Virus record (IMG/VR): IMGVR_UViG_2522572021_000013
Length of the DNA: 39,698 nt
From: a virus
Lineage: Duplodnaviria; Heunggongvirae; Uroviricota; Caudoviricetes
Reading direction: 5' to 3' (one strand)
Part shown: positions 9,001 through 12,000 of the stretch, piece by piece
Layout of the letters: each line of letters begins with the position of its first letter
Numbering within the stretch: the stretch's first letter is position 1
Position numbers: made by a program

Positions 9001-12000
9001 ACCTCTCGCTTTTCTGCAATAAAAAAGGCGCCATTTCTGGCGCCCGTATATGGGTTATAAAATTCAGCTGATACTGATGCCTGCGGTGGCTTTCTTCATC
9101 ACCACAACCAGCAAATCGCTGATACTTGCTGTGGGATACCAGTTATTCACCAGCCATGCTGATACCGAAAACTCCAGCGTCATGTGACCGTGACCGGCAG
9201 GCATATCAATAACGCCACTGTAAATCAGCGTATTATCCAGCGCGGTACGGTTATAAATTTCAGCACCGTTTTTCCGCACTATCAGACGGCATGAGGAGTA
9301 AATATCAGTATGCTCTCTCTCATGCTTAGCGCCACTGAATGCCACCGCCGGAATAACAATCTGCCGGTCAAACGGCTGATCGTCATAAACCCTGACGGTA
9401 ATGGTCCCTGATGGCCACCGCTCCGGTGCCCGGGAGTCCCGCGGAAAAGCCTTACCCACTGTTTTGACTATATCGCCTTCAATCTGGTTGGCTGACAGTT
9501 TCCCCTTAATCTGACAGTTCTCATTAATTGTGACATTGTTGAGCGTCCCGGCGTTCGCATTCACACTGCCACTGATATCTGCATTTTTAGCGGTCAGCTT
9601 TCCGTCTGGTGTCAGGGAAAATGCCGGAGGATTACCGCCGCTGGTAATGGTGGGAGCCGTCAGATATTTCAGGAACACTTCATTCATGAATATCTGATCG
9701 CCCTGACCAACAAACATCGGCTTTGTGTTGCCATTCGCAGGATTAATCATCGCAATCCTGTCTGCTGCCAGCAGCACCTGACTCTGCATGCCGTCGGGGG
9801 TGTTCTCAATACCGGCACCGATACCCGCAATATAAAGGCGTCCGTCCTGCATCTGCTGCAGCTTCACTGCCCACATGCTGTTCAGGTTATTATTTGTATC
9901 AACCTGAACCTTCTGTATCTGCTGGATCGCTGCACTCTGGTCTTCCAGTTTCTTATTGACGGTCTGTGTTATTTCATTGCTGACATCCGTTATGGACGTC
10001 CTGATTTCAGTCAGGTCAGGCGCAAGCTGACCGTTATCAATCTGCGTCCACAGCTCCTGAGCCAGATGGGTTTTCCCTATCTCGCCTTTGAAAAAATCCA
10101 GATAGCCGGATGCATCATCACTCGGCTGACCAACAGCCTCCACGAATGCCGATTTGCCAACGGTGTTCACACTGCGGATATAAAAGTAATAATCATGGCC
10201 CGGTTTGATATTGATACTGGCGGCTATCCAGTACAGCCCCGTGCCAAGATAGCGGGCTGTGGTTTCAACCTGCCTGATATCGGTAATCCGCGTTTCCGAG
10301 AACCAGAACTCAAACTGTACCGTCGGATCATAAACCGCAAGATGCGGCGTGGCGGTTATCTGAAAATAGCCCGGTGTCAGCTCAATCCGAGACGGCGCTG
10401 CCGGTGCGGCAATCCGGAACGATACCGACGCCGGATCGCCCTGCTGCCCCCGGGCATTTGCCGCCCGGACTGTCAGCCTGTAGTTTCCCAGCGCCAGCTG
10501 CCTGAAGCGGTATGTGGTTTCCGTCGTCCGGGCTGTGCTGACCAGCCGCTCACTGCCGTCTTCTGCTGTCACGGTCAGACGAAGCAGGAAGCTCACGCCC
10601 TTCACCACCTTCGGCGTATCCCAGCGCGCCAGCACCTGATATTCCCCGCTGTCTGCGGTGACTTCGGCAGTCAGGTGCTGCACCGCGGGCGGCGTGACAC
10701 CATTCACCGTGCCGCTCTGGTCGCCGTCAAAGTGCGCCCCGTTATCCACGATGGCTTCTTTTTCCGGCACGTGCTGCACCGCCGTGATGGCAAAGGTGCC
10801 GTCCGTGTTTTCCCGGATGGAGACACAGCGGAACAGGCGACGACGCAGTGACGGCAGGGAGAGTCCCCATACACCGTATGTCTCCACACCATCAGGCAGG
10901 GTGCTGACCTGTATCCGGTCCGGCGCGGGGTGTGCAGTGATGGCCACGCTCACCGGCTTACCGCTGCCGTTAATCAGGTTCACCGTGGCGGCACCTGTCT
11001 CTGGCAGGGTCACCTCACGGTCCAGTGTCAGGGTGCGGCTGGCGGCATCGATGGACAGGATACGTCCGCCGGTCATGGTCCCGGCATAGTCGTTATCACA
11101 GATTTCAATAATGTCACCGGGTGTGTGACGCAGCCCCTGTGACCCGAGCGTGAAATCCACCGTCTGCGTTTCCAGCAGTCCGGTCTTTATCACCCACAGC
11201 CCGGCACGGTGGGCCTGACCGCGACTGGTGCAGCCGAACGCATCCATCTTCAGCAGGTTGCGCCCGTAGCGCAGTATGGCTTCCGGGTCTTCCACCAGTT
11301 CCGTGGAGGTCTGCCAGCCGTTCTGCGGGTCGGTGTAATTCACCTCCACCGCCGTGTGGCGGTCCTTCAGGGCGCTGAAGCTGTAGCGAAACCCCACGCC
11401 GTTATCATCCACCACCACATCGCTGTTGGTGTACGGCCACACCACATCCGACGGGCGGTCCTGAACGAACGTCAGCGTCTGGCCGTTCCATACCGGCATA
11501 CAGCGCATCGCCGAGCAGAAATCACTGAGCACATCCCATGCCTTACGCTGTTGTGACAGGTACGCATTAAAGGTCATCCGCGGCTCGGTCCCCCCGAAAC
11601 CATCCGGCACCGTCTGGTCGCAGTACTGCGCAATGGCATACAGCGCCCATTTGTCCACGTCTGCCGCCCCAGACGTTTTCCCATGCCGTAGCGCGGGTGA
11701 GTCAGCATGTCCCACAGGCACCAGGCCGGGTTGTTGCTGTATGCCGGTTTCAGGCTGCCGTCCCAGATGCCGCTGTACGTGCGTTTTTCCGGGTCATAGT
11801 TTGACGGTACCTGGATGATGCGACCGCGGATATGGTAGTTCACCGTCATCTGCTGACCGCCAAACTGCTCCGCATCCACCTGCAACCCCACAATCGCCGT
11901 GTTCGGGTAGCACTGTTTCACATCGATGATTTCGGTGTATGACGACCAGAGCGTCTTATTCTGCAGCTGGTCCGAGGTGTTGTCCGCTGTCTCCCGGACC

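Follow-up and report, generated by a model that had tools for sequence, protein, structure and literature searches.

The host specificity gene J is split into two overlapping open reading frames in a window of 39,698 nt, the whole stretch of DNA analysed here, and this raises the question of whether the tail tip gene has been inactivated, as in a decaying prophage, or whether the split stems from a homopolymer error in the deposited sequence, the two readings offered in an earlier note on this DNA. The window is identical to positions 2741835-2781532 of the E. coli O145:H28 strain RM13514 (NZ_CP006027.1), and RM12581, a lettuce isolate from the same 2010 outbreak, is identical to RM13514 over the whole window.

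Gene J and the prophage that carries it

RefSeq marks the interrupted gene (9064..12542, minus strand), encoding the tail tip attachment or host specificity protein J, as a pseudogene, 'gpJ, frameshifted', so that the frameshift was already known and is in itself an ordinary feature. ORF mapping recovered the two frames (11574..12593 and 9064..11721, both on the minus strand), which overlap exactly at 11574-11721, the same coordinates as in the earlier note, and the switch of frames falls where it had been placed, at a four-base run (11667..11670) that reads CCCC on the plus strand and GGGG on the minus strand (J nt 873-876, after codon G292). The 5' piece of J (11574..12542, minus strand) comprises 292 native codons and 30 out-of-frame codons, beginning RQTWTNGRC, followed by a stop, and in the 3' piece (9064..11721, minus strand) the frame is open from 11721; the 837-aa product from the ATG at 11577 is GenBank AHG09525.1/AHY71344.1, 'Phage tail fiber protein'. 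As deposited, J has 3479 nt and is a single uninterrupted ORF only when one G is added: in-silico insertion of this base gives a 3480-nt ORF (start GTG at 12542, 1159 aa plus stop), the 1159-codon frame that had been predicted for a fifth G/C at this site. The J strand at the break reads CGT CTG GGG CGG CAG, as against CGT CTG GGG GCG GCA in orthologues. In the sequence as deposited, J is split by the lack of one G from a five-G run. The earlier note had been right about which gene and strand are affected, where the break lies and how large the defect is.

Among Pfam families, the 5' piece contains FNIII-A_GpJ only (PF24801), and the 3' piece contains PF13550, PF24421, PF24489, PF09327 and PF12421. 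Taken over both pieces, the set (FNIII-A_GpJ, Phage-tail_3, Ig_J, Ig_J_second, Phage_Tail_Tip and Ig_GpJ_C) amounts to a complete gpJ architecture, with FNIII-A, hub, two Ig domains, tail-tip fibre and C-terminal receptor-binding domain. This complete domain set, together with the RefSeq annotation, argues that the split is not a chance pattern of ORFs. According to RefSeq, J follows the genes for the tape measure protein, M, L, K and I and precedes lom and the side tail fibre gene, and the tail genes around it (H, M, L, K, I, lom and stf) are all intact. G and T, which encode the tail assembly chaperones (18429-19108), are annotated as separate CDS; GGGAAAG, the slippery heptamer of lambda type, was looked for where the two genes meet and was not found, so that any G-T frameshift here would need another site.

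The element is a defective lambdoid prophage in mlrA/yehV, between btsS and yohO (gene order btsR-btsS-prophage-yohO-yehW). RefSeq lists the 3' remnant of a host transcriptional regulator at 39082..39531 (plus strand), which is mlrA/yehV by its position between btsS and yohO, and the feature table places the other remnant at 1908-1973. The mlrA gene has been named as the integration site of a prophage that is conserved in the ST32 lineage, and int is deleted from this prophage in all complete ST32 genomes (Nakamura et al., PMC7067040). In RM13514 the prophage carries nleA (4514-5755) and, by the RefSeq feature table, is devoid of an integrase and of the early region, its left arm being taken up by ISEc20, an IS3-family element and gene fragments. 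The portal gene (21357..23941, minus strand) is a pseudogene that bears the flag 'frameshifted'. Its counterpart in the mlrA prophage of 99-3311 and RM9154-C1 bears this flag too, and the frameshift flag of the kinase gene at 6053-6641 is likewise common to these two strains; judging by these shared annotations, the portal and OspG-like kinase lesions are probably inherited. The decaying prophage envisaged in the earlier note is therefore borne out without recourse to J, given the loss of int and the early region, the portal and kinase frameshifts common to other strains and the IS insertions, and an element that lacks both integrase and early region and has a broken portal is unable to excise, replicate or package on its own.

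Several smaller features of the prophage were also noted. The frameshifted effector-kinase gene adjoins nleA and is called 'OspG family effector kinase' in other strains, internal near-repeats occur within the portal region (about 21823-22415), and a TerB-family gene (36952-37383) is annotated with an internal stop, as a substitution-type pseudogene. The left arm at 33125-36576 (DUF6645 fragment, ISEc20, DUF1737 fragment) is a 98.9% duplicate of an RM13514 prophage segment at ~845-848 kb, whereas the mlrA prophage of 99-3311 and RM9154-C1 runs instead into an intact SASA esterase gene; the duplicate and this difference suggest inter-prophage recombination in the RM13514 lineage.

Run length in orthologues and in other assemblies

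The earlier note had pointed to intact J orthologues as a means of checking the site, and in other O145:H28 strains these have five G and no further difference. In the btsS-adjacent, nleA-carrying prophage of 99-3311 and RM9154-C1, J is intact and 3480 nt long (WP_106905629.1), and the window gene equals it at all 3480 nt but one G (0 SNPs, 1 indel), the alignment at the site being CGTCT-GGGGCGG vs CGTCTGGGGGCGG. Against these two strains, the J site is the only one-base indel in the ~30 kb of common prophage; the other three indels measure 4-9 nt and lie in recombinant patches. J is frameshifted relative to intact orthologues and lies within an otherwise defective prophage, as a genuine pseudogene would, and it also differs from all close relatives by one base of run length and no substitutions, as an assembly artefact would. 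The J lesion is private to RM13514 and RM12581, unlike the portal and kinase flags. It is known from these two only, and they come from one laboratory and pipeline, their assemblies being partly, not fully, independent.

The J alleles are separated by the k-mers AACGTCTGGGGCGGCAGAC (four G) and AACGTCTGGGGGCGGCAGAC (five G). The exact four-G 63-mer was found in 8 of the 1839 matching E. coli records (4344 places) and was never common to a clade. Besides RM13514 and RM12581, the four-G records are 99-3311, RM8995-C1, 2012C-4606, SMN152SH1, 16-9255 and PV15-279. In 99-3311 (NZ_CP101310.1), the prophage region around the four-G J shows, relative to a near-identical strain, 63 deletions over 12.6 kb, nearly all in homopolymers, and its tail region looks like an unpolished long-read consensus in a repeat. 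Nearly every tail gene there (1-12528 of the compared segment) is flagged as frameshifted, though the RefSeq genome is labelled 'complete'. RM8995-C1 has three G-run deletions, among them the one in J, and 0 SNPs relative to the near-identical sister RM8988-C1, whose orthologue was located by search, the region of RM8988-C1 at the RM8995-C1 coordinates being unrelated and without colinearity; the published island lengths of RM8995-C1 are a few bases below those of its sisters (PMC9144400). Adjacent tail genes are frameshifted too, in clusters, in 2012C-4606, SMN152SH1 and 16-9255, and PV15-279 is the only one of these six records with an isolated J frameshift. The change from five to four G at the J site is thus a demonstrated recurrent sequencing artefact.

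Protein-level searches gave little outside the two outbreak genomes. An exact look-up of the 322-aa truncated J product in public assemblies found none, a homology search with the junction and out-of-frame tail returned only noisy pieces of J, all lacking this tail and all from other assemblies rich in errors, and when seven candidate products were looked up by exact cluster, just the 837-aa 3' product was found, solely from RM13514 and RM12581. These searches give a real lesion no independent confirmation, but they do not disprove it either, because short-read assemblies break inside J.

Repeats, genome finishing and the rival explanations

RM13514 holds about 11 J-like copies, and the J site lies within an exact repeat of 1603 nt (10769..12371) that is identical, one G aside, to another J of this genome, that of the sodC/tccP2 prophage (record 1161173-1164646), which is intact and has five G. 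The nearest bases that distinguish the copies are ~700 and ~900 nt from the site, which puts it beyond the reach of 101-nt Illumina reads and of 454 Titanium reads, with the length of the latter assumed to be roughly 400 nt. The RM13514 draft, built from 454 and Illumina reads (HiSeq 101-nt PE, 70 million reads), comprised 247 contigs, and its repeats were closed manually, using PacBio reads of the early C2 chemistry; the same paper describes no subsequent polishing (PMC3893438). RM12581 was finished likewise, with CCS reads only, and no SNPs were found between the two genomes in non-repeat regions (PMC4032123). Closure of prophage repeats by short CCS reads only is hardly feasible without a template, and the lengths of the two chromosomes, which are 2 bp apart, also suggest template-guided finishing of RM12581. 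In the sodC/tccP2 prophage, however, RM13514 and RM12581 differ by 6 substitutions and one indel in 10.6 kb, which, in view of the absence of non-repeat SNPs, shows that RM13514, RM12581 or both contain errors in prophage repeats. These differences (NZ_CP006027.1 vs NZ_CP007136.1, 1156745-1167346) fall in the tape-measure and I genes, and the tape-measure and M ORFs are fused in the sodC/tccP2 prophage of RM12581.

Further private one-base deletions were found in the same two genomes. The transposase of ISEc20 (IS110 family; 34641..35836, plus strand) is frameshifted by a change from CCC to CC at 34760 (k-mer pair GCATTACCAACGACG vs GCATTACCCAACGACG), the query measuring 1281 nt and the match 1282 nt in every other record listed, with 1135 records matching at >=99% identity. 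The window copy has zero substitutions, its deletion falls in a stretch of 1281 nt repeated exactly in another genomic copy, and the second ISEc20 copy of RM13514 itself (record 846467-847663) is intact; this deletion is probably a further finishing error. In another prophage of RM13514 and RM12581, the gene for the terminase large subunit (NZ_CP006027.1 858887-860814) has CC instead of CCC at record position 860732 (k-mer pair AAAATCCGGGAAG vs AAAATCCCGGGAAG), in a stretch of 2251 nt that measures 2252 nt in every other O145:H28 assembly listed and is otherwise 100% identical, and RM13516/RM12761, which come from the same pipeline as RM13514, have the extra base. The prophage DNA sampled, roughly 75 kb, thus contains three private frameshifting one-base deletions in G/C runs (J, ISEc20 and terminase), all common to RM13514 and RM12581 and all in multi-copy DNA. 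Substitutions outnumber indels about 10:1 in E. coli mutation accumulation, and the three indels are accompanied by 0 substitutions in the 7 kb around them, a pattern that does not fit ordinary divergence but does fit residual long-read gap-filling errors.

Between the pseudogene and the homopolymer error put forward in the earlier note, the comparison favours a sequencing or assembly error: the four-G J is probably an artefact of assembly or consensus, and the strain would really have five G and an intact frame. The true J would be open throughout, and the four-G run would be a consensus error made in closing the 1.6-kb repeat, which short reads could not have placed and which would have been closed by hand with early PacBio reads. 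We infer that the J gap belonged to those filled with PacBio reads and that RM13514 served as the template for finishing RM12581, to which the error would have been passed. The position of the site in a repeat beyond short reads agrees with this course of events, as do the errors of the same type elsewhere in the assembly (ISEc20 and terminase) and the disagreement between RM13514 and RM12581 in another prophage. The paralogous J was called with five G in the same 1.6-kb context, so that a chemistry error driven by context would be insufficient and a low-coverage gap fill would be needed. Against an artefact, RM13514 and RM12581 both have four G, and RM12581 is no blind copy in every prophage repeat; the tail genes beside J are clean, unlike those of visibly error-laden assemblies; and in a dead prophage there would be no selection against a real frameshift. 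The presence of the four-G run in RM12581 was also considered as proof of a real deletion and was rejected as such, since it is uncertain how far the two assemblies are independent of each other in repeats.

It is possible, if on the whole rather unlikely, that J is a real pseudogene and that replication slippage took one G from its five-G run in the outbreak lineage. Such a deletion would explain why the lesion is isolated among clean neighbours and why it occurs in two assemblies that derive from separate isolates and read sets and differ elsewhere in prophage repeats. It would have arisen in a prophage that was defective already (int deleted, portal and OspG-like kinase frameshifts, early region replaced by IS elements), the J of VT1-Sakai, a prophage in the same integration site, offers a precedent, being 'truncated by a mutation' at another position, and the J of PV15-279 is likewise four-G and isolated. 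A real deletion is harder to reconcile with the lack of any accompanying substitution in 3480 nt and with a site that falls exactly where the assembly method is weakest; this J allele is found in no other strain, and the truncated product is known only from RM13514 and RM12581. The ISEc20 and terminase deletions would need to be real too, which implies an unusual, indel-biased history. Were all three real, which we regard as improbable, the 2010 lettuce-outbreak clone would have gone through an indel-biased episode, or selection would have disarmed genes for prophage morphogenesis and transposition, and the five-G run of J would be a natural hotspot of recurrent inactivation, with PV15-279 as a case for comparison. 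A real deletion in J would leave a 322-aa N-terminal fragment (292 native and 30 foreign codons) and no tail-tip protein; lambda tail assembly starts from J, and in the prophage it could not begin, which would add one more lesion to an already dead element.

A functional role for the split, either through a -1 ribosomal slip on G_GGG or with the G run acting as a phase-variable switch for tail production, is extremely improbable. By codon arithmetic, a slip of tRNA-Gly from GGG onto the preceding GGG would yield the wild-type RLGAADV, and the J site does vary in eight assemblies; however, the frame split is absent from orthologues, which are single five-G ORFs in all but 8 of the 1839 records, there is no X_XXY_YYZ heptamer but only G_GGG, and the 103 nt downstream fold no better than shuffled sequences (z = 0.06). 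Programmed frameshifting at J was rejected on these grounds. Switching is contradicted by a tract of 4-5 nt, known contingency tracts being far longer, and by variants that are singletons; five of the six in other strains come from assemblies with obvious indel errors, and at least five of these six are sequencing errors.

The finding has little biological weight, as the prophage cannot make phage alone whether J is intact or not, and its value lies in curation, RM13514 (CP006027) being in wide use as a reference for O145:H28. In at least three 'frameshifted' prophage or IS genes of RM13514, the lesion resembles an error of repeat finishing more than decay, and caution is advisable with pseudogene counts and 'defective prophage' calls drawn from this record. 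An intact J would remain a possible donor of a functional tail-tip module for recombination among the many lambdoid prophages of the strain.

Comparison with other J genes

The J site of the window has counterparts in the homopolymer undercalls of long-read EHEC prophage sequences (99-3311, RM8995-C1, 2012C-4606, SMN152SH1 and 16-9255), in which the identical change occurs at the identical J site in multi-copy tail genes. These five error-laden assemblies, however, have several to dozens of frameshifts nearby, whereas that of RM13514 is the lone one in its tail operon, with two more elsewhere in the sampled prophage DNA.

VT1-Sakai (Sp15, the Stx1 prophage of E. coli O157:H7 Sakai) is a lambdoid prophage at the same yehV/mlrA site, and its J, which is 92% identical to the window J at the DNA level, is also represented by two overlapping CDS and described as a 'truncated protein by a mutation'. 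The break is nevertheless elsewhere, since the overlap lies at ~J nt 1050-1176, compared with nt 873-876 in the window J (~200-300 nt further in). The split VT1-Sakai J occupies 3052-6524 of the compared AP000400.1 segment.

A further parallel is the tip attachment protein J of phage lambda (PDB 8iyk, 8xcg and 9e7m), whose gene has the same place in the tail operon (H-M-L-K-I-J-lom-stf) and whose product has the same domain set. A phmmer search of J against PDB returned 8iyk_J (E=7e-142) and 9e7m (E=2.7e-142), with matches of 242 aa that extend across the break. These 242 residues align without gaps, so that the lambda-like sequence runs on across the site as the earlier note had anticipated (PDB 8iyk), and around the break, which comes after G292 in lambda numbering, a 14-residue motif is identical and a 17-residue stretch is fully conserved with lambda J (8iyk and 9e7m). 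In lambda, a single ORF encodes the 1132 aa of J, whereas the window J is one base short after codon 292 and, when repaired, encodes 1159 aa.
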